Below are positions 1-54,823 of a stretch of 60,000 nucleotides of DNA, in pieces. A program made the translations under genes and the position numbers. Origin of the DNA: Botryllus schlosseri (lineage: Eukaryota); NCBI GenBank assembly GCA_051294905.1, contig CM119371.1:17982001-18042000 (forward strand), read 5' to 3'. Every line of letters starts with the position of its first letter. Positions within the stretch are counted from its first letter, which is position 1. The notes under the pieces were generated by a model. It was not told the origin of the DNA and ran no database searches. It saw nothing but the letters and a program-made list of their open reading frames with translations.

Positions 1-3000
1 AGTAACGAATAACAGAACCGTCGCAGACGGTGATTCGAATACCGACAAATTCTCACTTATTTCTGATCCAACCCTAATCCTCTGTGAAGTTGAGGCTTAT
101 TCGAAAAGGTGTGAAATAATTGTAAAACCCTACGTCGCTGACAGGATAATGCATCAGACATAGCGATCTAGTTATAGCATGGTCGGGATCCATTCGGGTT
201 CTATAGGTAAATCCAGATAATCCAAAATGAAATATTTGGACTTTGGCGTAGTGTGAATTGAAATAGGATTGACAAACAAGACTACCAAATTTCAACCCGG
301 TCATATTTAGAGATTATACACATATTGATTTGAAACAAGTAATGAAACCTTACAACTCTATTCACGATCCGGCTTTCCGTTTGTCAAAGAGACATTTTAA
401 CATCTTACCATACTCAAAAGAATTATTCATAATATCAACCGGTGTTAAAAATATAGTTTTCACTTACTTGATTATACCACTACAATTCACAAACTTGAAT
501 TAATTCATCCTGGTTGTATTCGTATGATCGGTCTTTTTTATTCAATTGTAAAGGTTGTTACTATTCTGAAGACAAAGTATTTACTAATCGCTGCATATAC
601 GATTCGACTTGAACATATTATATTTTGAGTATACGAGATTTGAATGTCTGAACAATAACTGACTAATAATTTATCACAATTAAATCCGTATATTACAGCG
701 TAAAAGATATTTGAACGTCAGCAACTCTGTACGGTCATAGTTACTACCACTAATTTACCCGGCCAACTCGTCATGATCATTCCTGAAATCTACACAAACA
801 TGACCACTGACTAGAGTTAACCACAAAATAGCATCGAGTTTTAAATCCAGTTGTAGCTTACGTATTATTTGAATGCGGGTTATGTTTTGTTATAATTGGG
901 TATACGGATAAAGTATTAGGGCTCGACATTTTAACATTTTGCCATACTCAGTCAATCAGGAAAACATTGTCAAGTAAATCCGTTACCCGACCAACTCAAC
1001 AATATCCTTATGAAAAGTAGACAAGACTACGCGAGTAATCACTAAAACCTAAAATCCATAACAAGTTCGGTTTTACTCATATCCCTACGACGCATCATTT
1101 TTATTCTGCAAGACAAACTAATTACTACTCGGTATATTTTGTAAGACAAAAGTAATTACTCTTCGGTACAGGGGACTTGAGCTTAACATAATATGTTTGA
1201 GTATATGAGATTTGAAAGGTCGAGCAACGTAGTTAAGAATTCATTTCTTATACGATCAAACGCCGGTGTTACATCGAAAGTTATCATGCTGTAAACATAA
1301 GGATTGACACATTGATTTGACATATGTAATAGTTGATCATGACTTGATTATTAAATTATTCGCGTTAATTAGACCCGGTGTTGTGGTAAAGGTTATTATG
1401 ACAGCAACAAACTTTTCACTACCGTGGTTATTAACATATTGATTTGTAAAACTATACTTGTCTGAAATGTTCTTGATTTGAAAGATATTCCGTGTTGGTA
1501 CAAATCACTCTGCGTATTACGGATATCAGAAAATATTTTTACAAATGTAGTTGTTTCCAGTAACCAAGACTAAAGATGACACAACAATTTCGTTATTCAA
1601 ACATTGAACACCCGATGCAAAATGCTTTATTGGTCAAATTCGCAACGGGTAATTGAAACGACTAAGTGTAGAGTCAGTATATCACAATATCGTTACTATT
1701 GAATCCAGCAATTGATACGATTTATTGTCGGGATTTGTGATAGTACATTGAAACATACACAACTTACAGAGTGTGAAAATATCACTTTGTGTATCGAGTA
1801 CCGTTTGAAGCGTGCGATCAATACATAATTCCGTTCGCACTCTCTAAGACGTTGTGAAGTCTACAGATTTACACTTCAAGACTTTGATCAACACAGAAGC
1901 AATTTGGAATATCTTTACTGGACGCATCCTATTCTACTAGACTTGAGTAATACACAAAACTCATAGCATTAACAAAATCGCAATAGGCGCTACACTGAAA
2001 TCTACAAAATGTGTTTGTATTGCTCAAAGTAGTGATCATAAATTATCATTTGAATAAGTAATTGTAATCATAAAACCAAACTTGCGAAAGTCATTACCAT
2101 AACAAAAGAATATTGTAGGTTGCTTGCTAAATGTATGCCGGAAATATTTGTAGAACGCTCACGACCAAAGAAATCGGAAATCTTCCTATTGTCATTCGTC
2201 AAAGTATATGTTGACACAATACTCATCCCGTAAAAGATCTTACTTGTATGTGATTAAATCGCCGGTAATTAACTCGCTAAATCAAACCATAAGGAAATTT
2301 CACTCACTCGATGGATATGAAACAGCGTCGCTTAATCGGTCTATATCGTTTTTCTAAAGGTAAATCATATCCAGCCAATTGAAAACAATTTTCACTAGCT
2401 TGGTAATGAAACCGAAGTCTTCATTCAACGTTTTGTTTGTGTCAAATACTTTGCAATAAACACACTGGAGTGGTTCAGCTTTACATCATCAGACTGTAAT
2501 CTGTAAATCAAGCTTACATCCGATTTGTAACTGCATTGTTTACCTAACCGAGCTGTATGCATAGTTTGATATTTTTGTCTAGTGATTGCGGAACATACCA
2601 AACGATACACATTCACTCCCGAAATACTGCGTTGATCTCAATTCCCTTTGTCGTGATAATCGAAGTACATTTGTTTCGAATTCGTAACAACCGACTACTT
2701 TTCTACGACATGATAAATTTTTGACAAGTTATGCTTAGAAGATTGGTTGCATATCGCGAAAAATAATATAGCACTCATATTGACACTCATATTACTTGAG
2801 TTTCTCCGCTTACTATATGTAAATGTAACCTCGTCCATCTTTCAAAACCACAACGAACAACGATGAAAAGTATGCAATCAAACACAACATGTTTTACTTT
2901 TGTAGGACACTAATTATTATCTCATTTCATACTACGTGTATAAGAAAGATATTCATGACACACGAAAATATTCGCTCATGCTACGAACCTGTACAATCAT

Positions 3001-5150
3001 TGGTGACGCTTTCAAACTGGTTCGACGTCACAAGAACTTTATTGTCTGAGTCATTGTTCATGTATCTTAATAATCAAATAGTTCAACACAGAACTAGTAC
3101 TAACAGAAACATCAGAGTTGTTTACACAAAAGTTTGTATATGTGCACAGTATACGAATACCATGTGTAAGTCCAGCACAATTGTGGTATCCATACGAGTT
3201 TAGTTACCACAATTTACGACACCGAGGTCGCGTCATCTTTCGTAAGACAACAAACCAAGGCTTCAGGATATGTCCATGTCATAGCAATAAATCAGCTACT
3301 CCAACAACAGAGTGCATATGTTTCTAGTTACGGTGCTTACATCTTACACACAAATCAATCTACTTTACTAACGAAAAGTGGTGAGTCATCATATGGTTGT
3401 CCTCACAACTAAATCATACTATCATACAAAATGGTCGTTATAGTTTGCACACCAACGGTACATCATACAAGTAACAAGTCTCGAGAATCCCGTTATTCAA
3501 AAAACGTGAACGTATTTCTACACCAAGTCGTTATGTTGATGAAAGCGTATATTGTAATATCATGATCGATTTGCATTCGTTGGTCACAAACTGTCACTAC
3601 TCTAAATAATTCTTTTCACCCAAACACAAACGCATACTTGTCACCATTCGTTTTCATCAAGCACGAGTTCGAGAAACTTACTTACTACGACATGAATTTT
3701 TATTTTTTATGTTGTGTAAATAGGTAATAATTAATTCAAGTAACACTATATCAACATCATCGAGTTGTGCTAATAGATTTACATGTGGTCTTGTGGTTTT
3801 CGTCGGGACATACAACACGAACTAACTGTAGACTCCTCTCTGTTGTACAGCTACTCGGTAATCGAAATGCATTAACATGTAAACAACGATCTTGTGTCGT
3901 CACACCAAAAATATGTTCACTGTCGCGATACCCCGCACAAGACATGCATAGCCTTTTCACACTCGTAATAGTATACCAACGTCAAGCGATAACGTTTAAC
4001 AACACCAACGACACTGAACCCGCGACGTTTACCTATGTAAAATTACCATTTTCACCCGGAGGCCTGCCGTTTCCTGGAGTAACAAACCTTTTTCACTTGG
4101 AAATATATTTTTTCTCTGGTTAACAAACGTTTTTCGCTTGGAAATATATTTTTTCTCTGGGCAACAAACCATTTTCACTTGGTGGTCCGTCGTTTACCCG
4201 AGTAAAAATATCATTTTCCTTTGGAGATCCGGCGTTTACCCAGTGTAACAATACATTTTCACTTGGAAAAATACTTTAACCTAGAGTAACTAATCATTTT
4301 CTCCTGGGTAACAAACCCTTTTTGTCTGGAAAACTATCATTTGCCTGAGTACCAATACCGTTTTCACTTGGAAATCTATCTTTCACCTGGGTAACAATAT
4401 CATTTTCGTTTTGAAAACTGACAACCACACCGGACAATTTGATATTTTTGTATATTGTTACAACGGACAGTGACAAAATACACACCAACAACGACTCCGA
4501 TACATTTGTCCAATCAAATATTCACTTGCTCTGATGCATCCCATCAAAATCATTGGTTACTCACATACAATAACAATGTGCTGTTGTACATCGACATGTA
4601 TGTTTTCGGAATTGGTGAATAAAGGGGTTTCCGATATGTCCGTGATGTCTGGGTTCGTGCTTTGGATTTTCCAGAGTCAAAATGTCTGAATAAAACACCT
4701 CCTCGACTTTGGTAACTGGTTGATAAACGGATAGTGGTGTTCGGAAAACGGGTGAATTTATGTTCCCCATCGCGCTAACAACTCCGGGTTACTTGTGAGT
4801 TTCCTCGGGTCTGTTTACTATATTGGGTCTTTACTGATCAATACATGTCGCTCCAGTCAGCTGAAACCGGATCACTAATATGAGAAAGTGTGTGGGGGCC
4901 TGATCCGGATATTCACTCATGAACCAAAGACCAATATTCAAGTAAACATGTTACAGACCGTGTTTTGTCTCCATGAAAAATACCAATGCATACACCATCA
5001 CATACAAGTAACGTCACGATTGTTCACAAGTATTCGCGTAAACGAGGTGTACATACAATGTGTCGGTGTACAAACATCATGGAAAACAGATTCATGTTCT
5101 CAAGTATCATCATGCGACGACTCTGTACATTCAATGTGGGCATAGATGAC
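1..5150 (+). repeat. Left arm of giant inverted repeat (probably extends beyond window start)
   Basis: Position x pairs with 11278-x, and every ORF here has an identical mirror ORF (e.g. 74..304- / 10974..11204+). I noticed only three mismatches (811/10467, 1790/9488, 4284/6994) in a non-exhaustive comparison. Confidence 0.97.
4020..4420. repeat. Degenerate ~42-bp tandem repeat (mirror copy at ~6858-7258)
   Basis: Recurring TTTTCACTTGGAAA...GGTAACAA units. In the mirror orientation they read as 14-aa FPSENxxxT-like units broken by stops and frameshifts. Confidence 0.8.
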
Positions 5151-6127
5151 ACACGACATGATAAAATGGACAGTGCATTATGCATACCGATACATTCTCA
5201 GTCAAATATGCGAACCGTGTACTATCACGCATCCCGATTTTCGCTGAATATCCACAACACCAACAAATCTGTACATTTCTTTTCCCTCGACCTCGACGAT
5301 AGAGTTGTCATCCCAATGTACCAATCGAGTGTATGGTTCATCAGGTGTAAAATCCAAATCAAATGTCACCAAGGTATCGTTTTTCATTTTCAATATTTCC
5401 ACCGCTGCATCTTGTCTGTGTCGTAAAACAACGGTGTGGGGCCAGAGGAATCTATGGACAGTTACGCGTAGTCCCATATTTACTCGTGGGTATACTCAGG
5501 TAACGACAACGCTTTCTCAGTGGTCTGCGTGGGTGAACCGTTTCAATACGTAGCTGGATCAACTAGACCAAAAGTTTCCAACCGTGATTTATGTTGACCT
5601 GTCGAGTTACGAGATAGCACCCTCTTGCGGTGTGATTAACACGAAATAAGCCTTCAACTCACAGAGACACACCTTGGAGTACATTATCTAATCGTAATCG
5701 AACTCGAGATTCACACACACACACAGAGTCCCTGTTTACGATTTCAATCCGGAGTCACTGTTCACGATGTTTATCTGTAGTCGTTATGTGGGAGTAGCGA
5801 CATCTGACATATTCATCGCGTGAAAGATTGATAGCGATGGTGATCGCCAAATACATAAAATCAGGTGAAACACTGCGGTCTCAGCAAAAAAGTTTGCAGG
5901 TTAGGACGACCAATACGTGGAGGGATTGAGCGAGTTACGCAACCCGATTATGTCGAAGTCTGGATCACGATACAAGTCTACTTGAAAATCCGGACAATCT
6001 TGCAAAATCAAGGTGTGAACCCGTGAAAGGGTTGTACTCGTGTGAGATTCATTTTTCACAAGTTGGGTTGAGGCGGTTCATACTAAGACCATGTTACGTC
6101 CAAATATGGCTGCTTGCCTGTCTCCAA
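5151..6127. other. Unique 977-bp spacer of the palindrome
   Basis: Symmetry ends at 5150/6128 (..CATAGATGAC | GTCATCTATG..). Contains a 91-aa protein-like ORF (5202..5477-) of unrecognised family. Confidence 0.9.
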
Positions 6128-9100
6128 GTCATCTATGCCCACATTGAATGTACAGAGTCGTCGCATGATGATACTTGAGAACATGAATCTGTTTTCCATG
6201 ATGTTTGTACACCGACACATTGTATGTACACCTCGTTTACGCGAATACTTGTGAACAATCGTGACGTTACTTGTATGTGATGGTGTATGCATTGGTATTT
6301 TTCATGGAGACAAAACACGGTCTGTAACATGTTTACTTGAATATTGGTCTTTGGTTCATGAGTGAATATCCGGATCAGGCCCCCACACACTTTCTCATAT
6401 TAGTGATCCGGTTTCAGCTGACTGGAGCGACATGTATTGATCAGTAAAGACCCAATATAGTAAACAGACCCGAGGAAACTCACAAGTAACCCGGAGTTGT
6501 TAGCGCGATGGGGAACATAAATTCACCCGTTTTCCGAACACCACTATCCGTTTATCAACCAGTTACCAAAGTCGAGGAGGTGTTTTATTCAGACATTTTG
6601 ACTCTGGAAAATCCAAAGCACGAACCCAGACATCACGGACATATCGGAAACCCCTTTATTCACCAATTCCGAAAACATACATGTCGATGTACAACAGCAC
6701 ATTGTTATTGTATGTGAGTAACCAATGATTTTGATGGGATGCATCAGAGCAAGTGAATATTTGATTGGACAAATGTATCGGAGTCGTTGTTGGTGTGTAT
6801 TTTGTCACTGTCCGTTGTAACAATATACAAAAATATCAAATTGTCCGGTGTGGTTGTCAGTTTTCAAAACGAAAATGATATTGTTACCCAGGTGAAAGAT
6901 AGATTTCCAAGTGAAAACGGTATTGGTACTCAGGCAAATGATAGTTTTCCAGACAAAAAGGGTTTGTTACCCAGGAGAAAATGATTAGTTACTGTAGGTT
7001 AAAGTATTTTTCCAAGTGAAAATGTATTGTTACACTGGGTAAACGCCGGATCTCCAAAGGAAAATGATATTTTTACTCGGGTAAACGACGGACCACCAAG
7101 TGAAAATGGTTTGTTGCCCAGAGAAAAAATATATTTCCAAGCGAAAAACGTTTGTTAACCAGAGAAAAAATATATTTCCAAGTGAAAAAGGTTTGTTACT
7201 CCAGGAAACGGCAGGCCTCCGGGTGAAAATGGTAATTTTACATAGGTAAACGTCGCGGGTTCAGTGTCGTTGGTGTTGTTAAACGTTATCGCTTGACGTT
7301 GGTATACTATTACGAGTGTGAAAAGGCTATGCATGTCTTGTGCGGGGTATCGCGACAGTGAACATATTTTTGGTGTGACGACACAAGATCGTTGTTTACA
7401 TGTTAATGCATTTCGATTACCGAGTAGCTGTACAACAGAGAGGAGTCTACAGTTAGTTCGTGTTGTATGTCCCGACGAAAACCACAAGACCACATGTAAA
7501 TCTATTAGCACAACTCGATGATGTTGATATAGTGTTACTTGAATTAATTATTACCTATTTACACAACATAAAAAATAAAAATTCATGTCGTAGTAAGTAA
7601 GTTTCTCGAACTCGTGCTTGATGAAAACGAATGGTGACAAGTATGCGTTTGTGTTTGGGTGAAAAGAATTATTTAGAGTAGTGACAGTTTGTGACCAACG
7701 AATGCAAATCGATCATGATATTACAATATACGCTTTCATCAACATAACGACTTGGTGTAGAAATACGTTCACGTTTTTTGAATAACGGGATTCTCGAGAC
7801 TTGTTACTTGTATGATGTACCGTTGGTGTGCAAACTATAACGACCATTTTGTATGATAGTATGATTTAGTTGTGAGGACAACCATATGATGACTCACCAC
7901 TTTTCGTTAGTAAAGTAGATTGATTTGTGTGTAAGATGTAAGCACCGTAACTAGAAACATATGCACTCTGTTGTTGGAGTAGCTGATTTATTGCTATGAC
8001 ATGGACATATCCTGAAGCCTTGGTTTGTTGTCTTACGAAAGATGACGCGACCTCGGTGTCGTAAATTGTGGTAACTAAACTCGTATGGATACCACAATTG
8101 TGCTGGACTTACACATGGTATTCGTATACTGTGCACATATACAAACTTTTGTGTAAACAACTCTGATGTTTCTGTTAGTACTAGTTCTGTGTTGAACTAT
8201 TTGATTATTAAGATACATGAACAATGACTCAGACAATAAAGTTCTTGTGACGTCGAACCAGTTTGAAAGCGTCACCAATGATTGTACAGGTTCGTAGCAT
8301 GAGCGAATATTTTCGTGTGTCATGAATATCTTTCTTATACACGTAGTATGAAATGAGATAATAATTAGTGTCCTACAAAAGTAAAACATGTTGTGTTTGA
8401 TTGCATACTTTTCATCGTTGTTCGTTGTGGTTTTGAAAGATGGACGAGGTTACATTTACATATAGTAAGCGGAGAAACTCAAGTAATATGAGTGTCAATA
8501 TGAGTGCTATATTATTTTTCGCGATATGCAACCAATCTTCTAAGCATAACTTGTCAAAAATTTATCATGTCGTAGAAAAGTAGTCGGTTGTTACGAATTC
8601 GAAACAAATGTACTTCGATTATCACGACAAAGGGAATTGAGATCAACGCAGTATTTCGGGAGTGAATGTGTATCGTTTGGTATGTTCCGCAATCACTAGA
8701 CAAAAATATCAAACTATGCATACAGCTCGGTTAGGTAAACAATGCAGTTACAAATCGGATGTAAGCTTGATTTACAGATTACAGTCTGATGATGTAAAGC
8801 TGAACCACTCCAGTGTGTTTATTGCAAAGTATTTGACACAAACAAAACGTTGAATGAAGACTTCGGTTTCATTACCAAGCTAGTGAAAATTGTTTTCAAT
8901 TGGCTGGATATGATTTACCTTTAGAAAAACGATATAGACCGATTAAGCGACGCTGTTTCATATCCATCGAGTGAGTGAAATTTCCTTATGGTTTGATTTA
9001 GCGAGTTAATTACCGGCGATTTAATCACATACAAGTAAGATCTTTTACGGGATGAGTATTGTGTCAACATATACTTTGACGAATGACAATAGGAAGATTT

Positions 9101-11277
9101 CCGATTTCTTTGGTCGTGAGCGTTCTACAAATATTTCCGGCATACATTTAGCAAGCAACCTACAATATTCTTTTGTTATGGTAATGACTTTCGCAAGTTT
9201 GGTTTTATGATTACAATTACTTATTCAAATGATAATTTATGATCACTACTTTGAGCAATACAAACACATTTTGTAGATTTCAGTGTAGCGCCTATTGCGA
9301 TTTTGTTAATGCTATGAGTTTTGTGTATTACTCAAGTCTAGTAGAATAGGATGCGTCCAGTAAAGATATTCCAAATTGCTTCTGTGTTGATCAAAGTCTT
9401 GAAGTGTAAATCTGTAGACTTCACAACGTCTTAGAGAGTGCGAACGGAATTATGTATTGATCGCACGCTTCAAACGGTACTCGATACCCAAAGTGATATT
9501 TTCACACTCTGTAAGTTGTGTATGTTTCAATGTACTATCACAAATCCCGACAATAAATCGTATCAATTGCTGGATTCAATAGTAACGATATTGTGATATA
9601 CTGACTCTACACTTAGTCGTTTCAATTACCCGTTGCGAATTTGACCAATAAAGCATTTTGCATCGGGTGTTCAATGTTTGAATAACGAAATTGTTGTGTC
9701 ATCTTTAGTCTTGGTTACTGGAAACAACTACATTTGTAAAAATATTTTCTGATATCCGTAATACGCAGAGTGATTTGTACCAACACGGAATATCTTTCAA
9801 ATCAAGAACATTTCAGACAAGTATAGTTTTACAAATCAATATGTTAATAACCACGGTAGTGAAAAGTTTGTTGCTGTCATAATAACCTTTACCACAACAC
9901 CGGGTCTAATTAACGCGAATAATTTAATAATCAAGTCATGATCAACTATTACATATGTCAAATCAATGTGTCAATCCTTATGTTTACAGCATGATAACTT
10001 TCGATGTAACACCGGCGTTTGATCGTATAAGAAATGAATTCTTAACTACGTTGCTCGACCTTTCAAATCTCATATACTCAAACATATTATGTTAAGCTCA
10101 AGTCCCCTGTACCGAAGAGTAATTACTTTTGTCTTACAAAATATACCGAGTAGTAATTAGTTTGTCTTGCAGAATAAAAATGATGCGTCGTAGGGATATG
10201 AGTAAAACCGAACTTGTTATGGATTTTAGGTTTTAGTGATTACTCGCGTAGTCTTGTCTACTTTTCATAAGGATATTGTTGAGTTGGTCGGGTAACGGAT
10301 TTACTTGACAATGTTTTCCTGATTGACTGAGTATGGCAAAATGTTAAAATGTCGAGCCCTAATACTTTATCCGTATACCCAATTATAACAAAACATAACC
10401 CGCATTCAAATAATACGTAAGCTACAACTGGATTTAAAACTCGATGCTATTTTGTGGTTAACTCTATTCAGTGGTCATGTTTGTGTAGATTTCAGGAATG
10501 ATCATGACGAGTTGGCCGGGTAAATTAGTGGTAGTAACTATGACCGTACAGAGTTGCTGACGTTCAAATATCTTTTACGCTGTAATATACGGATTTAATT
10601 GTGATAAATTATTAGTCAGTTATTGTTCAGACATTCAAATCTCGTATACTCAAAATATAATATGTTCAAGTCGAATCGTATATGCAGCGATTAGTAAATA
10701 CTTTGTCTTCAGAATAGTAACAACCTTTACAATTGAATAAAAAAGACCGATCATACGAATACAACCAGGATGAATTAATTCAAGTTTGTGAATTGTAGTG
10801 GTATAATCAAGTAAGTGAAAACTATATTTTTAACACCGGTTGATATTATGAATAATTCTTTTGAGTATGGTAAGATGTTAAAATGTCTCTTTGACAAACG
10901 GAAAGCCGGATCGTGAATAGAGTTGTAAGGTTTCATTACTTGTTTCAAATCAATATGTGTATAATCTCTAAATATGACCGGGTTGAAATTTGGTAGTCTT
11001 GTTTGTCAATCCTATTTCAATTCACACTACGCCAAAGTCCAAATATTTCATTTTGGATTATCTGGATTTACCTATAGAACCCGAATGGATCCCGACCATG
11101 CTATAACTAGATCGCTATGTCTGATGCATTATCCTGTCAGCGACGTAGGGTTTTACAATTATTTCACACCTTTTCGAATAAGCCTCAACTTCACAGAGGA
11201 TTAGGGTTGGATCAGAAATAAGTGAGAATTTGTCGGTATTCGAATCACCGTCTGCGACGGTTCTGTTATTCGTTACT
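6128..11277 (-). repeat. Right arm of giant inverted repeat
   Basis: Reverse complement of 1-5150; ends ...TTCTGTTATTCGTTACT at 11277. Confidence 0.97.
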
Positions 11278-11319
11278 TATTAAATGTTACCAGTGAAATC
11301 CAGTTCCGTGACATACTGA

Positions 11320-11710
11320 TTATCAAAATATTACATTGTGGCGATTGGAATGTATGTAACAACAAGTTGCGAGGGATGGCTATGTCTTAGGTGTTATCTC
11401 GTGAGCGATCGTGGGATTTGCAACCTATTTCACACCTTTTTGAAGTGTTAGTTTGTGAACGCGGCTATTGTTGGTATCACCGTCTACGCCAGTTATGTGA
11501 CAAACTTATTACCAAAATATTACATTGTCAACGATCGGCATGTATGTAACAGCGAGTCGCGAGCGATGGTTATGTCTTAGGTATTATCTTGTGAGCGATC
11601 GCGGGATTTTACCAATATTTCGCACCTTTTTGGAGTGTTAGTTTGTGAACGCGGTTATTGTTGGTATTCGAATCGCCGTCTACGCCGGCTCTGTGGTAAA
11701 CTAATTACCA
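11320..11710. repeat. Two tandem ~190-bp degenerate units
   Basis: CAAAATATTACATTGT...ATGTATGTAAC...GTGTTAGTTTGTGAACGCGG repeated at ~11323 and ~11513; partial related units at ~11160 and ~11740. Confidence 0.8.
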
Positions 11711-11754
11711 AGCGACTGATTCCTAGATTTAGCAAACTATTTCACACCCTTTTT

Positions 11755-12299
11755 GGTGAAAGTACGACATGCCGCCCGCAGTCTATAACCGAAAGTACGA
11801 ATCACCGCCGTGTCCATAAGAATAACGATATATTGAAGTCACATTCACCGTAAACGTTGGGATTAACTCGAATCGGTCATATATAATAATTTGGGATATA
11901 CACATTAACTAAGAGTCAATCACGTGACTATTTACTTGATACATATTCAACACCAGTCGAGAGATGTCTATACCCGAAAGTACGATATGCCGACGCACCC
12001 ATAAGAACACATTGGGAATCACCACCACTGCCTATACGCGAAATACGACATGTGAAAGTACGACGTGCGACAGATGCCTATACCTAAAAGTACGATGTGC
12101 CAACACGAGTTTTCAATACGATATGCGACAGATGCCTATACCTGAAAGTACGATGTGCGAGCGCACCCATAAGAACGCATTACGATGTGCGACCGAGAGG
12201 GGGGTCCAAAAGTACGATGTGCCACCACGAGTTTTCCATACGATGTGCGACCGCACCATAAGAGCCCCTGCCAGGTCACGAGCGATCATACTAACTACT
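11755..12299. mobile_element. Putative Polinton/Maverick-like terminal region: subterminal TACGAYRTGC motif array ending in ...TAACTACT
   Basis: About 10-11 copies of (AAG)TACGATGTGC. The reverse complement of the end reads 5'-AGTAGTTAGTATG, matching the AG/AGT-repeat termini described for Polintons. No Polinton core gene recognised. Confidence 0.5.
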
Positions 12300-12556
12300 C
12301 CCGGCTAGGCATTCGCAAAGCGAAAACACAGAAGAGAATTCGATTTTCGCAGAGACTTCGCTATATATGGGCATTTACAAGCGAAAGGACAAGAAGTATA
12401 CGATTTTCGCTGTGATTTCGGTTTATATAGATAGGTGTGCGTCTATAAATGGTGAAGAATTGTTATTGAACAGAATTTTAGGTGGGGCAATGCCCCAGTT
12501 GCCCTATAGGACGAGCCGCCACTGGTACAAAGCTACCATGGCGGACGTCATTTTAG

Positions 12557-13563
12557 TAGGGATGGTGTGAACCTCTGAAAGGTTCAGGTTCGTGTGAACG
12601 CGAACCTTTTTGAAAGGTTCTGTGTGAACGCGAACGCGAACCTCATGACGTCACATGACGTCATTTTCCTAATTCTAACCCTACATTTCAGTGAAGTGAT
12701 AGCCTATATTAATGTACACGATACCTAGCGACGACTCTGGCCACATGATGCCACAATGCTGAAGTACATATTGACGATCTAAACGTCACCAAATGTATCA
12801 ACTGGGACAATCAAATGATATAATAATACTCCATAAAATCACTACCTTCCGTCGCTTTGCCAACAATTTCGACAAGTACTTGCAAGGGAATATATGCTTA
12901 CGTCTAGGCCAGACCGGACAATGTATTCGACGTCTGAGTATTGCTATACGTTGATATTGAGCAGAGTGTAAAACGGATTTCTATACTTGCTACCGATAAT
13001 ACCCCATTAACAAGTTTTACAGCAGTAGCCAACACCCCAATCGCACGGATTTAGTTTTTATGATACAATAATAGACATTTAAGATTGACCCAGTACGCCT
13101 GCTATACTTTTTACATCAGACAACGATATCAATCTCATTGATTGGTTGAATAAGCATCATTTCGCTGACTACCTTAATACCTAGTGTATTTCACTCTTGA
13201 TGATGTGTGATTGCGGGTAACGCTCACAGCAGAGAGTAACTAAATATTCCCAAACGGAAATGCTTGATATTTCGAGTAAACTTCTGTAACAAAGTAAGTA
13301 AAATTTTTTAGATTGCCAATATGCATGCTCTGCTCATTTAGTGTTGATTTTTTTTATGCTGCCAGCGCCATTCATAGAGTGACCCAGAGTTGAAATGCAA
13401 TGCAATGCAATGAGAGATGCAATGCAATGAAGTGAAAATTGTAATATATGAAAAAGGTTCACAGTGCAGAACCTACCGAGGTTCGTTTGTGAACGTGAAC
13501 CTTTAAATTTCCGAGGTTCACACACAGAACGCGAACGTGAACCTCACGTTCACACCATCCCTA
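12557..13563. mobile_element. Non-autonomous hAT element (family A), 1007 bp
   Basis: TIR TAGGGATGGTGTGAAC / GTTCACACCATCCCTA, perfect 8-bp TSD CATTTTAG, subterminal GTGAAC repeats. Confidence 0.95.
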
Positions 13564-28295: not shown

Positions 28296-28461
28296 TGGAT
28301 TATCACACCTTTATTCATTGAACCAAGATTTATGTCGTCCGTCGCAGTACCTTAGTAAAGTTAACCATACATTTGAATTCACGGGATTCGAATTTGGTGA
28401 AACGCAAATTACGGGCAGCGAACTTGCATATAATTGTTACTTATGTAAAAGTATATTTCAC

Positions 28462-28971
28462 CTGAAATATTGCAGGTAAGCGGTTTCGTTGCGATCCAAG
28501 TAGTTCAAATGGTCAATCAGATGCTTCATAGATGGAAAGTCTTCCACGAAAATGAATCCGGTGGCGGGGATATGTGCTTCGTATACCTCTTCAGTAGAGC
28601 CCCATACAACCGGTACGACTCCGGCTTTTAAGGCACGGAAAAACTTCTCCGTCACGTAGTCTTTACAATGATAGGAATTCTCGAATGCGAAATAAAATTT
28701 GTATTGCGATGTGTATTCTATCATTTCATTTTTCATGTAGTCATTTCGAGAAACAGGTGCTTTCCCAAAGCATCGCCCGAATGCTTCCAGCTTCAAGCCC
28801 ATTGTCAGCAATTTCTTTACATAAGCAAGTCTGACAACGGCCCCTTGAGTCAGATCACAATTTGAAATTGCGATCAACGCCAGATGCTTCTTATTCGCCA
28901 GTGGCTTCTCCAATTCGGTTCCAGTTTCAGCTACTGCATTTCCGTAAGTCAATTGAAAATCCGAGTCTCGT
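28462..28971 (-). CDS. Alpha-1,3-fucosyltransferase (GT10) exon 5 (catalytic domain)
   Basis: 510 nt, phase 2-2 (ACAG|A ... AG|GTGAAA). Encodes RDSD, ISNC, YKFYFAFENSYHCKDYVTEKFF, VPVVWG, FIFVEDF and YLDRNETAYLQYF. Confidence 0.95.
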
Positions 28972-29045
28972 CTGTCGTTGGTACGATATCGAAGTGTTAA
29001 TATTGGGATACCATATCATACAGAAGTCCAATGTCATGTAATGAC

Positions 29046-30040: not shown

Positions 30041-30946
30041 TTTGAAGAGCTTCTTGGAGGTACAGAACTTCAATATACAATTAAATGGTATATTCATATT
30101 GAAATGAACCCGAATATTTTCGGCTGACACTCGTCAGGGGTAATCGTCAGCAACTAGTAGAGAATTGGAAAGAACATTGTATATCAACAATCGTATCACA
30201 AAATATGACGTCACCAGCATGAAATTTCGAATGAGAGAACGTTCAATGTACTATTTTTAGGTGATACACGAACTCCTTTTGTTGACAGAGTTTTGGTTGG
30301 TGTATTTTGATAAAAGTTGATTCCAAGGCACACAAATGGAATTGTGAACGACCTCGACCTACGATTCGAAATCGGTCGTCTCGATAATTATTCGCACAAA
30401 TCGGATTATCCAACAGATGTTTGCCGATGGCAGAATTAATGGCCTTTGATCGATCAGCATCAATCTTAAGTGGATGAGTTAAGGGTGAGCTTTTCACATC
30501 GCGTGACGCACGTGTTCTGATAAATCTGGGGACATGTTGGTTTATGCGGTCCTGCAGACGTCTTGACGTTCTTCCCACGTAGCCACAATCACAGTGGCAC
30601 CTATATTCGTACACTACATTACTTTGTTGAAGTGCAGGAAGCACGTCTTTGCGTGTTGAAGGGAGCAGTTGTGTTGTTGTAAAAATCACATTGGTTTTGA
30701 CTGTATCGTAACATTTACCGACAGCAGAAATCAATTGTTTTTCAAAGCGGGTGGAAATGGGGCCAATCCAAGGTATATGGATATAAACATCTTTTATTGT
30801 TCGTGCGGTGGGCTCTGCTCGTTTTTCTGCGTTGAATTGCGTTAATTTCCTCTCCATGCCGCGGCTGATGACGTGTTCAGGGTTCAGGGACGAGTGTCAG
30901 CCGAAAATATTCGGGTTCATTTCAATATGAATATACTATTTAATTG
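30041..30946 (-). mobile_element. 5'-truncated Penelope-like retroelement with GIY-YIG endonuclease and inverted partial pLTR
   Basis: ORF 30243..30857 contains VVYEYRCHCDCGYVGRT.RRL..RI.QH and SAIGKHL. 30889-30950 is an inverted copy of 30075-30135. Flanking direct repeat TATATCTCTAATC. Confidence 0.9.
30108..30141 (-). ncRNA. Minimal type I hammerhead ribozyme motif in Penelope pLTR
   Basis: ACCC-CUGACGA-GUGUCAGCC-GAAA-AUAU-UC-GGGU: conserved core, 4-bp stem I, palindromic AAUAUU stem III. Confidence 0.75.
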
Positions 30947-30988
30947 TATATCTCTAATCATGAATCATGACCACATCTCATTGTAAAT

Positions 30989-47779: not shown

Positions 47780-48156
47780 AGTATTCGATATAGTATTTCT
47801 GCAAAAGTCTTAGTGTTAGCCAATCCGTATTTGACAGTGTCTGGCAAACGTTTCAGCTCTAGGGCAGTGGTTCTCAACCTGGGGGGGGGGGGGCGTGCAT
47901 GCATCTGAGGGGGAACGCGAAGAAGCGGTCAACTGAAATTTTTTTTCGAGCTCTGCCCGATATACCTCCAATTCACGTGTGTTTTTCTGTATATAGACCG
48001 AATTTCATATTTTTGAATTCTTTCATTAACAGTCATAACCTTCCATGCCATCAAACAATCTGTTGGGGTTGCTAGCATCCCGGTTGGATTTTGTGATACG
48101 ACGATAAGGGGAGCGCGAAATGCCTCGCGCACGAAGGAAAAATTTTGAATCAACTG

Positions 48157-51100
48157 CAAAAAACCTCACAGTGCCGCATATGGCGGCTGTAGCGCATATA
48201 AAACCGAAGCTAAACTGCAAATTATCAAAGAACGTACAAAAATCAGTTATTCCCTAGCGAAAGTCGTGTTAAACTCGGCCACCGTTACTACCTCTTTGCC
48301 TGCGTCTCATATACAAAGGACTTTTAGTGAAGTCATCGCTAGCGACTCCTCCACATCTTTCCGACAACCATTACCTCGTCGCACCAAAATCAGTTCGATC
48401 CTTAGCAAACATACCATTTCCGCTCCTGCTCCCAATAACGGGGATTTGCGACATTTCAGTCAGACCCAATTGAAAGAAAATACTGTTAACCATGCTGCTA
48501 GCGATACCGAATCGGAAGATAATGCCTATTGTCTTCGTGTCGACCATCCACCCCAGATCTTTCGCAGTTACTTTCCCTACTTGTAGGAATTGTTGGAGGT
48601 TGTCAAATCTGCTCAATGCAATGCGCTTGAAATCGTTTCCAGAGCATGCCTTAAGCATGGTTTTTTTGCTCCGGCTCCCAAAGTAAATGTGTAATCAAGC
48701 TCTTCGTTTCGTCCAATGGAATTGTAGAGGTATTTATCGTAAACTACCCGAGCTGAAACAATTTATCCACAACCTACCAAATACCCCTGACGTAATATTG
48801 CTTCAGGAGACTCATCTCATCGATAAGCATTCCCCTAAGTTGACGGGTTTTCGGGTCTTTCGTAAAGACAACTCGCTTCATTCCGGTGGCCTGGCCATTT
48901 TTGTGCGCGAATCTCTCCCCGCCACTGAGATCCAACTTGACACCCCATCTTGCATTGAAGTGTTAGGTATATCCATCGGCCACCTACGCATCTGCAACGT
49001 CTATAACGAGCCCTACCGCAGTTTCCGAAGAGAGTGCTTTTGTTTTCTTGGAATCGCTGTCGCATCGTGCAATAATCTTCGGGGATTTTAATGCCCACCA
49101 TCTCTCCTGGGGGCAAAGAAATAACCGACGAGGCCGCCTCCTATTTGACGCTTTCGACCAAAATGGATCGGTTGTATTAAATCGTAGCTCGCCAACTCAT
49201 CTTAATATTGCCTCCAACGCCATAAAGTGCTATTCGCTACTTGATTTATCCATCGCATCAGCCGACGTATCTTTGAAGTGCCGAACCGACGTCACGGATC
49301 GGTTGCTGGGAAGCGACTACTTTCTTGAAATAACTACCTTCAAAGAAAACTTTTCGAATGAAACAAACAGAAGAAACTCGTGGAATTTTCGCAGAGCAGA
49401 TTGGGCGGCCTTTGAGAGAAAAATCGACAGGAGCTTGGAATCTTCGGCCGTGAAGATGTAAACTTTTTGAACAAGATTTTCTCAGAATGCGTAATGGACG
49501 CAGCGCATTCATCGTTCGCTCCTTTTCTGGTGTTCGTTCCTATAATACCATACCTCCGATCACTGTCGATGGCGTCGTTACTGGTGGTGACGACAGGTTG
49601 AAGGCTGACGCTCTAGTCTCGCACTTTTCGTCGGTTAGCAGTGACAGCAATTACACTTAAGCATTCGGAACAAGGAAGGAAGCGGTTGAGGATCAAATAA
49701 CCTCCCGAATCGCCAGTCTCTCAGTACCTGACAATGATATCATTAACGGTCCTTTTTCCAAGGCCAAACTGAAATCAGCCATTTCTCCTCGAGGAAACAC
49801 CAGCCCGGGCTTGGACACTATCGCTTACCCCATGTTGAAGCACTTGTCTGACAAGTCTCTAACATATATACTCCATTTGATCAACTCTTCATGGAATAAT
49901 GGCTTTCTTCCCGACACCTGGAAACACTTTGTTGTTGTCCCTATATTGAAAGGTGAGAAATACCCAGCTGCGGCTAAATCCTATCGTCCCATTTTGCTGA
50001 CCAGTCATTTTTGTAAAGTAATGAAAGTTATAGTAACGAGGCGTTTGAGATTGCACTTGGAATCGAAATCCCTTCTCAACGCCGCTCAGTCTGGATTTCG
50101 TCATGGGCGTAGCACTATGGATAACATCATGCAACTTCATGATACCATGTATACAAAGCGGTAAATAATCGATATTCCGTGATTGCAGTCTTTCTAGACA
50201 TCCAATCCGCGTATGATATGGTATGGCACAACGGTCTGTTGTTAAAACTAACGGAGCTTGGAATAAAAGGGCAAACGTTGAACTGGATAAGGAATTTTGT
50301 GTCACACCGATCTTTCCAAGATCGAGTCGGTAGTTTTCTATCCAACGTTCATTATTTAAAAAATGGCCTGCTACAAGGTAGTGTCATCAGTCCTCTTCTC
50401 TTTTGCAGTCACGATGGCCGACCTTCCATTTTTGGTCAACAACTCCCATGCACTCTTCGCCGACGACCTCTTACTTTGGGACTGCGGTCTCTCCATCCCA
50501 AATCTACTTCCGTCCATACAGCGTTCCCTGGACTCCAGTGGTTGCTTTTGGGGTGGGCGAGGTGGGCGGTCGCCCGGAGCCTCCCCGGTCGAAAAGGCCC
50601 CCCAATTTGGATTTTGCGCTTTTGTCAAGGAGAATGACGAATAAACATGGAAATCCGTGTACCAAGCAAGAATATGATTCCGCACAGATGCTGTGTCAAT
50701 CATCATCAAATCACTGCATGTGTTAGAAAAGTCCCGTATCCCAATAATCATCACGTCTCTGCATGCGGTAGACTTACTTAGTTTTGATGTAGTCTATCCT
50801 TGCACACATGCAAAACAGCTGTTATGTTCATGCATTTTACGTTGGTATCGTTTGCCTCTTATTTGTCTAGGATTAGTAATTACCGCCAATCATTATTTCC
50901 TCGTGTGTCGTGCTTGTATTTATACCCTGTGTTCTGTTGTCTCGTGGTCTTTCGTTTAACTGAACTCTGGATCGTGTCGCTTGTCTATAGTTATTCTGCC
51001 GTTAATATACTGATTCTGTATTGCAACCTCGTCGCATTGAGTTATTGTTCGAACAAGATCAAGAACATAACGACAGCCATGGCCGAATCCAGGACCTGGG

Positions 51101-53110
51101 GAAACCTTTTGAGGTGGTGAAAGATAGATAATAATTACCGATGCGGAAGGGGGGTCTGGAGGGTGGAGCCCCCCATAAGTTACGGATGGATACTTATAGG
51201 GCCCCCCGGTAAGTCTCGCCCTGCCCCCCCCCCGTTCGTTGGGCCACCACTGCTGGACTCCATACAAGAATGGTGTGACAAGTGGGGTATGGTCCTGTCG
51301 AAATCCAAAACCGTCGCAATGTTATTTACACATAAAAGGAAAATTCCTCCTCTTGCTCTCCAAGTGGATGGTTCAAATATACCGGTTGTGGAAACATTCA
51401 ACTATCTCAGCGTCGTTTTTGACAAGAGGCTATCCTACAAAGCACATATCGAATACATTTTGTCCAAATGTAAATTTGTTGAGAGCTCTTACTGGGACAA
51501 GTTGGAGAGCTAGTAAAAAGAGTCTCCTGTGTGCCTACCGATCCCTCGTTCGCTCCATCATCGAGAACGGAATGCCGGCGTACTTCTTTGCGCCCGCTAC
51601 CCCCCTGAAGAAGATCCAGGCCATACAGAGCACAACCTTGCGTATCTGTACCAACGCCATGAAGAGTACGCCGATTTGCATGCGTACTTCAATCCGAATG
51701 TGGGGAAATGCCGTTACATGTGCTGCACAAGTATATTTCTATGACTTACCGCTCTCGCCTCTTGAACCAGGACTCGAACAACTCTTTCATTTGCAAAATT
51801 ATTGAAGAAACCTGGCACGATATTGACAGTTTCGTGAATCCAAACTTTCAAACGATCAACACTTATACTAAATCATCGCCATTTAATCGTTTCAGATTGG
51901 ACAGGTACCGATGACCCTTGTCTCTACCTTGGTTGATGCATCAACCAAGTGTGGATTTCTCTCTCCTCGTAGAGAGGTCTTCACGGATCGTTTTCGGAGC
52001 CTACAACCAGATATATTTAAGTCATGTTGCCGACCATTACGATGAACACGTGCGTATATATACGGATGGGTCTAAATCCCTAGTTGGAGGTGGAGCGGCT
52101 TTTTGCGTCCCTTCACTTGATGTGGCAGTAGCTGAGGCCTGTTCAATGGCTCATTCGGTCCTGTCGATGGAGCTCATAGCGATCGACCAAGCTCTGAGCT
52201 GGATCTCCAGAAACAGTTCCTCGTCAAACAAATTTCTCATTTTTCCAGGCTGTTCAAGTGCCCTAGTTTGCATTAGTAATCCGAACTTGTATCCTATTCA
52301 CAGGCTCGTTTATGAAATTTTGTCCTCTCTTAAGCACCTCAGACAACGTGACTTCAGCGTGTCATTCCTCTGGCAACGTGGGCATTCACGACAATGAAAA
52401 AGCGGACAGATTGGCGAAAACTGTCTCTGACACCCTGCCGAATTCTCGGGATTTGACGATGCTCTCGGAACAAGAAGCTCGTCGTATCATACGTCGTCAC
52501 TGCATGACGCTGTGGGATCAGGAATACCGTTTATCCGAAAAAGGGATTCAATACAAATCCTTCAACACCTCGGTTTCTGATTCTCCCCCTATTTGTGGAA
52601 GCCGCCTCATATGATGGCATCATTTTTCGTTTGAAATCTAGACATTGCCGATTAAACGCGCATTTATTTAAAATTAGAATAGTTCCATTTCCTTGTTGTA
52701 CTTACTGCTGCTATACTCCGAATCCGTCGAACATTTTTTAATCTGTTGTCCGAAATATGCTTATCCTCGTAAATTTCTTATTGATAAATGTGCTCGATTG
52801 CAAGCGAATTTTTGTGTTGCCGATTTACTACTTGATCCTCATATAATTCCTTATGTCGTTGAATTTGTGTTACCGTGCAACCGCAATTTGTAATTGAGTT
52901 TATCATGCTAATCTGATATTTGATTTGTGTTTTGTGTAACCGCCTATCATAACTATCATGTTCTTGTGAGACCCCAGTTGTGATCTTTTTGTATCTACTT
53001 TATTCCATTTTTTCGTAATTTTCTGTGTACAATGTTTTTGACCGTGGCGAAAAAGGCCGACAGGCGATAAGCGCCATTCCTTTTGTTTAATAAACAACAG
53101 CAACAACAAC
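48157..53110 (+). mobile_element. Degenerate I-group LINE (ORF1 zinc-knuckle end; ORF2 APE-RT-RNase H-CCHC)
   Basis: Motifs QWNCRG, LQETH, GDFNAHH, YRPI.LTS, QSGFR, FLDI..AYD, QGSVISP, FADD, YTDGSK, H..NEKADRLAK, ESVEHFLICC. Many stops and frameshifts; AATAAA plus (CAA)n tail. Confidence 0.93.
50536..51252. mobile_element. 717-bp hAT element nested in the LINE RT region
   Basis: CAGTGG...CCACTG ends; perfect TSD CTGGACTC. Confidence 0.9.
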
Positions 53111-54823
53111 CTCCACACGCCAAAACAGAAATACTTTTTCAGTCGTTTCTTTTTTGAATGCAAAGCATTCATCTTCAACTTTTCGCTGTTTAGATTGCTT
53201 TGAACAACTTATTATGAATGAGTTGTGACCAAAGGTATGAAAGACTAGTAGCTAACTGCATATCTATATGGGACGAATCTACCAAACCCACACACGAAAC
53301 AGATTTTTCAAGTACACAACTGAAGGTAATGATCTTGCAGGAGTTGCCAGTATAAAATTACACATTTAGGCTAATTAAGATTAGGATGTTTAGCAACCGA
53401 AACCTTTCAAAATACGTGGGTCAGAATGGCATTGTAAGAATGTGATGATAACTGAAGACACTTGCTGTCAGGTGCTTATTACTGTATTGGTTTATTCCGC
53501 TGTGTGGATTCTGTTCGTTCCTCAGTTGCGTATGTCTGTGCTTGTTTGCTTATGGTTGATTGTATAGCCTAATTTTAGTTCATAAAATCCTAGAAATCGA
53601 ACGAGCAGATTCGTACATCCTTTCCTCGAAAAGTCACTACAACTTTATCAGATACTATTGACACCATCTACTGTAGAATGACTTTCTTTCAAGAGAAGTA
53701 CAGTGCTGGCATAAAAATCTTTACATTCAGTTTGCTATATTGCTACAGACGTACATAAGGCCGAAGATGTGCGATATGCCTAATTGCGGGCCTGTATTCA
53801 TCTGGAATTAGATTGCGCATTCTCGGACATGAATAATTAACCTTCGTAAAAGTCATGCGGATGGCGGACTGTCTTGAACAACAAATTTCTTATACTATAA
53901 AATAAATTCTGATACTGTTAACATGGTCTCCCCAGACAAGGAAGTGATCCACACTCATCGTATCATTCTGTCTAACTGAATCAATTCACTCGGGATCTGG
54001 ATTGTTTGCAATACAAAATAGGTTTTCGGAAGGAAGAAATGAATATGATGCGATGCTAGTATGCGAAGCGAGCATTGTCCTGCCCGAAATAGCGAATGTT
54101 TAAGATGCGCGGACGACGGCGCCATCGCGTCCAAGTTTGCAAGTCGGCGTAGCAAGAACGCTTTGAGAAGGTCGTCTTTGGACGTTTATGCTATACTGGT
54201 AAGCTGGCATAAGTACATGTAAATGAGACGGCGTAAGATTGATAGATCGTTTGGTCAATATTTTGAGGTTGATGTTTCGTGGTCTGCACCCGTGGTATAT
54301 CCGCAATTGCTGTAGAGGAATTGCCTTATGATCATCTTCACCGTAACATATCGGCAAATATGGCTTGCTTATTTTGAAGTAAGCTAGTAATTTTGGATAA
54401 ATTTCGGATGTAAATTTCAGTTTCAGGGTTCGTGCCGAAATCATGGTTAAGTTAAGATTTGAAAACTATTAAGAGTATAAAACCCTTCGAAGCTAATGTT
54501 ACTTTATCTCTCGCAAGAGCAGCGGTTCTCAAACTTTATTAGACTCGCCCTCCTTTATGATAGTGAAAAATTTCACGCCCTCTTTATCGTCATATCACAA
54601 AATACAATCAGAATGCTAGGAATCCCAACGGATAGTTGTATGGCATGGAAGGTTATGACTGTAGACGAGAGAATTCTCAAATATGAAACTCTGACTACAA
54701 ATAGAGCCATAACCACGTATTGGAGGTAAATCGCGATTGACGCCAAAATAGTTTCAGTTGACCGCAGCTTCGTGTCCCTTCAGATGCTTTCACTCCCCCT
54801 AGTTTGAGAACCACTGGCTAAAG

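Follow-up and report, generated by a model that had tools for sequence, protein, structure and literature searches.

The 60,000-nucleotide stretch analysed here (the window) comes from Botryllus schlosseri (assembly GCA_051294905.1, contig CM119371.1, positions 17,982,001 to 18,042,000, forward strand) and opens within a mobile element with Polinton/Maverick-type ends, which we call a satellite and which probably depends on gene-bearing Polintons of the same genome (the helpers). The element totals 13,321 bp and consists of two inverted arms of 6,172 bp, which differ from each other at five positions, and a 977-bp loop, the palindrome making up 93% of its length. In window coordinates, its features are:

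1-5150: left arm, part within the window; the left terminus, with its CCCGGC duplication, lies 1,022 bp further upstream.
5151-6127: non-palindromic loop, 977 bp, present in full or nearly so at all 40 scored loci, with 91-100% identity.
5202-5477, minus strand: loop gene of 91 codons (5205-5477) and a stop, whose product is predicted to be all-beta and has no identifiable family.
6128-12299: right arm of 6,172 bp, in which no coding signature was detected; a mosaic of diverged segments common to other copies.
6859-7255: degenerate 41-42-bp tandem repeats of the inner arm, mirrored at ~4070-4419.
11110-11711: subterminal repeats with spacings of 190 and 265 bp, unmatched in the helper copies examined.
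11758-12252, plus strand: array of 11 TACGA-core motifs; other copies repeat other 9-10-mer variants through their own array.
11776-12299: terminal segment common to gene-bearing Polintons, 93-94% identical to the sole helper with the same motif variant.
12256-12299, plus strand: copy-specific terminal 44 bp, ending ACTACT (opposite strand 5'-AGTAGT), used to compare ends among copies.
12300-12305, plus strand: 6-bp target-site duplication CCCGGC, matched at the left end.

Within the window, positions 1-5150 and 6128-11277 are inverted copies set 977 bp apart with three mismatches, and the 1,022 bp immediately before the window mirror 11278-12299 at 99.8%, which brings each arm to 6,172 bp. 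The left terminus, 1,022 bp before the window, reads CCCGGC directly followed by AGTAGTTAGTATGATCG; the right terminus reads ACTACT at 12299 and is followed by the same CCCGGC, i.e. a 6-bp target duplication. These measurements bear out a preliminary description, made from the sequence alone, which had predicted an element start preceded by CCCGGC about 1.02 kb upstream, and an element of ~13.3 kb with terminal inverted repeats of ~6.2 kb around a 1-kb core. The element also carries the (AGT)2 end motif of Polintons/Mavericks (PMC8097293).

The 190-bp repeats (136 nt at 86%; 223 nt at 82%) and the motif array, five of whose 11 units read exactly TACGATGTGC, are genuine, but the preliminary description, which counted about 10 motifs, had placed both beyond the right arm, whereas they are parts of the arm mirrored upstream of the window. 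Fainter repeats spaced 534-572 bp at 10051-10887 suggest that an old tandem duplication enlarged part of the arm. Outside the element, the insertion target and the following 400 bp (12300-12700) are themselves very high-copy repeats. Contigs joining the left flank directly to position 12300 with a single CCCGGC were found in two public runs (70 in X1, one in X12), and according to them the insertion is clean, though, the target being a repeat, these contigs may be its other copies.

No frame or tblastn match for an integrase or a protein-primed polymerase B was found within the element, nor any capsid, ATPase or protease gene, as the preliminary description had stated for polymerase, integrase and capsid. 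As a correction to that description, the core does hold a gene: the loop encodes a 91-residue protein. The start and stop positions of its frame are kept across subfamilies of only 58-75% identity; in two subfamilies, one copy's frame is two codons longer. Among eight copies of the gene, the ratio of non-synonymous to synonymous rates (dN/dS) was 0.16-0.47 in 28 of 28 pairs, compared with 0.6-2.4 in control frames, the exception being an antisense frame that has its third positions in common with the gene and is interrupted by stops. These ratios show that the loop gene is under purifying selection, while synonymous divergence between subfamilies reaches about 1.4. Taken together, a gene of its own under such selection and this divergence identify the element as a satellite lineage that is old and stands by itself, not as a newly formed defective genome. 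A coding-signal scan of five reference copies gave the loop gene as sole signal; hidden genes in the arms were thus rejected, the codon signal being absent outside the loop. In two subfamily searches, stops interrupt the gene at 5 and 2, respectively, of the 150 loci with the highest scores, a ranking which favours intact genes.

The structure model of the protein is all-beta, at a predicted local distance difference test (pLDDT) score of 80, and structure searches gave no clear match for the fold: the best Foldseek result had an E of 0.008 and a TM of 0.34, and comparison with the alpha-crystallin (small heat-shock / CS-domain) beta-sandwich reached at best a Z of 5.2, with a root-mean-square deviation of 4.4 over 73 residues. 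For the protein, Pfam returned nothing below E 0.1 and Atlas no usable match; a separate Rfam search gave nothing credible. Four close relatives were retrieved, all on ~1-kb contigs, and a profile search yielded one true relative and one WD-repeat match judged spurious; relatives were absent from the viral and metagenome contigs searched.

This satellite is one member of a large family. A genome search with the right end gave mostly inverted pairs 12-20 kb apart (best 40 of 2,208 candidates scored). Examination of 21 of 23 loci picked by their terminus revealed 15 long-armed palindromes, two gene-bearing Polintons or pieces of them, four rearranged or single arms, and no short miniature inverted-repeat transposable element (0 of 21). 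Ten of the 15 palindromes carry the loop gene (interrupted in one), and five lack it. Two of these gene-less copies were tested; their two gene-deleting junctions were each seen once among 40 scored hits, which fits dead-end deletions. As the preliminary description had anticipated, the structure with the 977-bp spacer recurs elsewhere with different target-site duplications: the loop was found at each of the 40 scored loci (20 of them retrieved whole), and the duplications are locus-specific. In the genome, one 19-mer of the loop gene has 253 exact occurrences, and a second loop-gene subfamily adds 150 scored loci, at least one of which overlaps the first set. The family thus amounts to at least about 400 copies of ~13.5 kb, i.e. 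at least 1% of the genome, a floor since both protein searches showed ~1,200 further unscored candidates. Satellite length ranges from 12.6 to 14.9 kb (median 13.7 kb, n = 14 copies). Shorter-loop copies were considered as fresh fold-back events and rejected, simple central deletions being sufficient. The same termini are also paired 60 kb apart at C4:13105075-13165301, where nested elements or large cargo are possible.

Helpers are present in the same genome. At one locus picked by its terminus, 745-bp repeats flank frames for an integrase, an ATPase-like protein, pieces of a polymerase, a protease-like protein and a 422-aa protein. The integrase combines rve and chromodomain, and in another copy the polymerase matches DNA_pol_B_2 (one of two polymerase frames scanned). 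The 422-aa protein falls in the F54H12.2-like group, and its relatives weakly match capsid models (Capsid_N 7/88, DJR-like 1/88); on these weak profile matches it is a likely capsid protein, hereafter the capsid candidate, and it gave no sequence match to solved structures. Among 97 scored loci of this candidate, 82 are near full-length at 95% identity or more (family 1, at least 82 copies) and 11 belong to a second family at 79-80%. The latter (L095:3032 to L096:8190; L097-L100) has a capsid candidate 80% identical to that of family 1, 525-bp repeats and a different terminal sequence. A third family, met once and about 49% identical to family 1, has a capsid-like gene within which a 7.7-kb one-armed derivative is inserted (L121:9-965 and 8754-8918). 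Helpers measure 14.3-17.4 kb (median 16.3 kb, n = 10 copies) and are outnumbered by satellites. Their accessory genes of 117, 217-218 and 293 aa are Pfam-negative (L026:3330-3680, L102:3606-3956, L102:4080-4733, L102:2364-3242); the 117-aa protein may be Bcl-2-like and the 217-218-aa one OB-fold-like. No profile match linked a small helper protein to the loop protein, and the helper stretches that were searched did not contain the loop gene.

What family 1 and the palindrome have in common is only 11776-12299, ~525 bp at 93-94%, so that the terminus is indeed linked to Polinton genes in other copies, as had been predicted. The other 5.6 kb of the arm and the loop gave no blastn or tblastn match in helper families 1 and 2, in a comparison that covered family 1 by one complete copy plus the terminal and accessory parts of 13 others, and family 2 by three copies.

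The terminal sequences change rapidly. The TACGATGTGC array is one variant among many, and several end-motif variants are present in helpers and satellites alike. Of 34 satellites, 33 have terminal 44 bp of their own, as do all 14 helpers; the two ends of a copy are nevertheless the same over this length in 23 of 28 satellites and 10 of 11 helpers. Being variable between copies and matched within them, these ends indicate that the same end-equalising process acts on satellites and helpers. In a tree of the last 430 bp (48 ends, 13 of the 34 satellites and one helper being chosen by similarity to the window's end), helpers are interleaved with satellites, with at least eight forced label changes, and a helper clade is rejected (p-AU 2e-46). 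This evidence, strong if not clean, points to a continuing exchange of ends between satellites and helpers. As a guess, the rapid change could be an escape from host DNA-binding repressors. A helper protein co-varying with the end motifs was sought in the 293-aa accessory protein and rejected, this protein being 82-99% conserved in family 1 and devoid of a variable repeat.

Target sites are similar too. Among 28 family copies with both ends found, the 6-bp duplication is perfect in 27 and has a single mismatch in one. Its centre is CG in 15 of 25 satellites and 4 of 10 helpers (versus 4% in flanking DNA), and CG, TG or CA in 22 of 25 satellites and 8 of 10 helpers (versus 18%), three further satellite sites being omitted from this count.

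The arms are alike within copies and mosaic between them. The two arms of one copy are mostly 99.1-99.9% identical. In comparisons between copies, blocks of kilobase size reach 99-100% identity with one copy but 75-90% with others, the best match in another copy spanning a median of 91% of the arm, and the nearest neighbour switching along it. As new mosaics are present in both arms, recombination between copies must have been followed by arm-to-arm copying. Three satellites within 230 kb (contig C8, 24.37-24.61 Mb; L043/L044, L047/L048, L049/L050) have near-identical inner arm blocks and different ends and duplications, which we ascribe to local hopping or to conversion between neighbours. 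The 216 arm-to-arm mismatches in 21 elements comprise 130 private ones, 40 variants of other copies, 37 unclassified and 9 near gaps (one mixed-arm copy contributed no rows), and are in places clustered into patches. A strong gradient of mismatches from loop to end was rejected: successive rates of 2.9, 2.4, 1.7, 0.8, 1.5, 2.9 and 2.3 per kb, from which two copies with over 60 differences were omitted, are lowest mid-arm, which is not decisive. Finally, the same heterozygous sites occur in two copies that lie 154 kb from each other, and relative to these sites the loop points opposite ways in the two, which suggests that crossover between the arms inverted it.

The best explanation of these results, to which we give a probability of roughly 70%, is a hairpin-shaped mobile DNA in many copies, which has Polinton ends and a single conserved gene in its loop and lives as a helper-dependent satellite, copied by a Polinton polymerase and inserted by its integrase. 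Helper dependence is likely, mobilisation in trans being suggested by the shared ends and the target bias; insertion is very probably the work of the helper integrase. In adenovirus-type replication, a protein-primed polymerase displaces one strand, whose paired terminal repeats re-form the origin. Similarly, the protein-primed polymerase of a co-resident Polinton would copy the satellite from the shared ends. Copying probably proceeds through a free linear form, in which the displaced strand would fold into a 6-kb stem, repair or template switching would equalise the arms, and satellites and helpers would swap ends. Such a 6.2-kb stem would offer ample heteroduplex for repair, template switching and annealing between different copies, and would account jointly for matched arms, mosaics and mixed-arm copies. 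There is perhaps an even chance that the 91-residue protein favours the spread of the copy encoding it, most likely by acting on helper proteins.

The size of the element may be informative as well. The satellite/helper length ratio is 0.84 (medians of 13.7 versus 16.3 kb), and adenovirus rearranges genomes outside 75-105% of unit length and selects within this range (PMC9863843). As an integrase alone should not need 13 kb, the non-coding arms may, tentatively, be filler that keeps the length fit for the helper capsid; lengths near 84% of the helper would be compatible with packaging. A true satellite virus is a more doubtful extension of this idea: a one-gene, capsid-sized palindrome would be replicated, packaged and integrated by a Polinton, its 91-residue protein would bias the helper, and its fast-changing ends would be swapped in a three-way race with the host. 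If this were the case, satellite length would be genomic evidence for particle formation by animal Polintons, whose free linear replication and particles are still argued from gene content in the sources cited (PMC5499653; bioRxiv 10.1101/2022.07.12.499685). In any case, the satellite offers a direct handle on Polinton biology: the route of replication and repair is recorded in the arms, packaging can be tested through the length, and single insertions can be traced by their copy-specific ends. The loop gene, in turn, is a candidate for regulating or inhibiting a Polinton.

Several observations weigh against a helper-replicated satellite. No free, protein-capped or packaged form was observed, and conservation of length could result from descent alone. 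RNA support for the loop gene is negligible (39 reads over both strands among 22 million), its protein is without recognisable family or fold, and the gene is missing from 5 of the 15 long-armed copies picked by their terminus. On the helper side, the A32-like ATPase match lies below cut-off and the protease-like frame is weak; the protease and ATPase labels are presumptive, being based on position, motifs and hits under the threshold. Since the sequences aligned for the terminal tree are repeat arrays, convergence or misalignment may inflate the interleaving. As 40 of the 216 mismatches are seen in other copies and heterozygous sites are common to two copies, equalisation is incomplete in each round; moreover, three copies combine a matching duplication with clearly unlike ends or arms, and large insertions confined to one arm have survived.

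An alternative would dispense with the replicating hairpin. On sex chromosomes, the arms of palindromes are kept alike by arm-to-arm gene conversion, and a non-autonomous Polinton moved by the helper integrase could have its arms maintained in this way in the chromosome, mosaics arising by ectopic conversion. The clustered patches and family variants within arm pairs, the two copies 154 kb apart with their reversed loop and the occurrence of mixed-arm copies all accord with it, and conversion in the chromosome can explain part of the arm pattern. As a full account it is unlikely, since 130 of 216 mismatches are private and unrepaired, the large one-arm insertions persist, the repeats of helpers, with some 15 kb between them, likewise agree within individual copies (10 of 11), and selection on the loop gene requires repeated replication of the copies that encode it.

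The preliminary description had favoured a copy-back-like defective genome, formed by duplicating one end of a resident Polinton head-to-head. The shape, the shared termini and the lack of core genes are those expected, the element being self-complementary with a loop and retaining its cis ends, and snapback genomes of this shape are known in adeno-associated virus (AAV; PMC8235507). Yet only ~525 of 6,172 bp per arm (11776-12299) match family 1, the remaining 5.6 kb and the loop match neither family, the loop gene has old subfamilies and no counterpart in those helper stretches that were searched, and the loop boundaries recur at all 40 scored loci. As judged from sequence comparison, a recent copy-back origin is refuted for the two helper families examined, and is very improbable overall; an origin from an extinct or unsampled Polinton is possible.

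Foldback elements of cut-and-paste superfamilies (FB, Galileo, Mutator type) have long modular inverted arms with internal tandem repeats, use a DDE transposase of their own or of a partner and make a longer target duplication. One merely resembling a Polinton at its ends would account for the very long modular arms and their tandem repeats, but it is hardly plausible given the (AGT)2 ends, the 6-bp duplications with the helper's target bias (PMC8097293), the 525 bp at 93% in common with a Polinton and the interleaved end variants. Besides, eight palindromic copies contain no frame of at least 170 aa except one of 175 aa, which is Pfam-negative. Long-read assemblies are known to produce near-perfect palindromes as an artefact, but self-mirroring of a read or contig can be dismissed here: the termini are exact, each locus has its own duplication, the arms carry mismatches, dozens of loci have the same fixed loop, and public runs contain contigs of the empty site.

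Elsewhere in the window, a 6.8-kb stretch between decayed inverted repeats (47912-54778; 164 nt, 77%) is probably an old DNA transposon. By its motif, a 185-aa frame (28458-29015, minus strand) may be fucosyltransferase-exon-like, and a 217-aa frame (30073-30951) may be akin to the GIY-YIG endonuclease of Penelope-like elements; the latter sits between 63-bp inverted repeats.

Among known systems, non-autonomous Polintons, which were reportedly recognised by Kapitonov and Jurka in 2006, are alike in having Polinton ends, in lacking the autonomous genes and in their presumed dependence on a helper. The satellite differs in that 93% of it is one palindrome, in its own selected gene and in being more numerous than its helper. 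Such elements are known by name (Polinton-1N1_DR; PMC9341505), and the consulted part of an anole study reports no non-autonomous copies (PMC3014272). The class is therefore already known, and no description of its palindromic, gene-bearing form was found in the literature covered, to which subscription papers, Repbase and supplements did not belong. Compared with the Polintons/Mavericks of a vertebrate survey (PMC8097293), the satellite is similar in its (AGT)2 ends, its 6-bp duplication and its size (within 12.7-24.6 kb), and it shares its terminal sequence with co-resident gene-bearing copies (525 bp at 93-94%; interleaved tree). It differs in the length of its inverted repeats (6,172 bp versus 46-1,447 bp) and in having no core gene. 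As that survey mined loci by integrase and polymerase, it could not detect elements such as this one, and surveys that require both genes overlook the whole satellite family.

AAV snapback and copy-back genomes (PMC8235507) are likewise self-complementary with a loop and helper-dependent, but they consist wholly of helper sequence and arise anew, whereas the satellite, of which ~525 of 6,172 bp per arm match one of the two helper families tested, is mostly unrelated to the helpers examined, is inherited integrated and encodes a protein. With satellite viruses and satellite nucleic acids it has in common a protein-coding gene of its own, absent from the helper sequence searched. Phage satellites are also linear DNAs with terminal inverted repeats that parasitise a DNA virus. 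Transpovirons share these properties and travel in their helper's particles (PMC5499653); they are, however, ~7 kb long, encode a helicase and parasitise giant viruses, whereas the satellite described here is palindromic, carries one 91-aa gene and resides in an animal genome.

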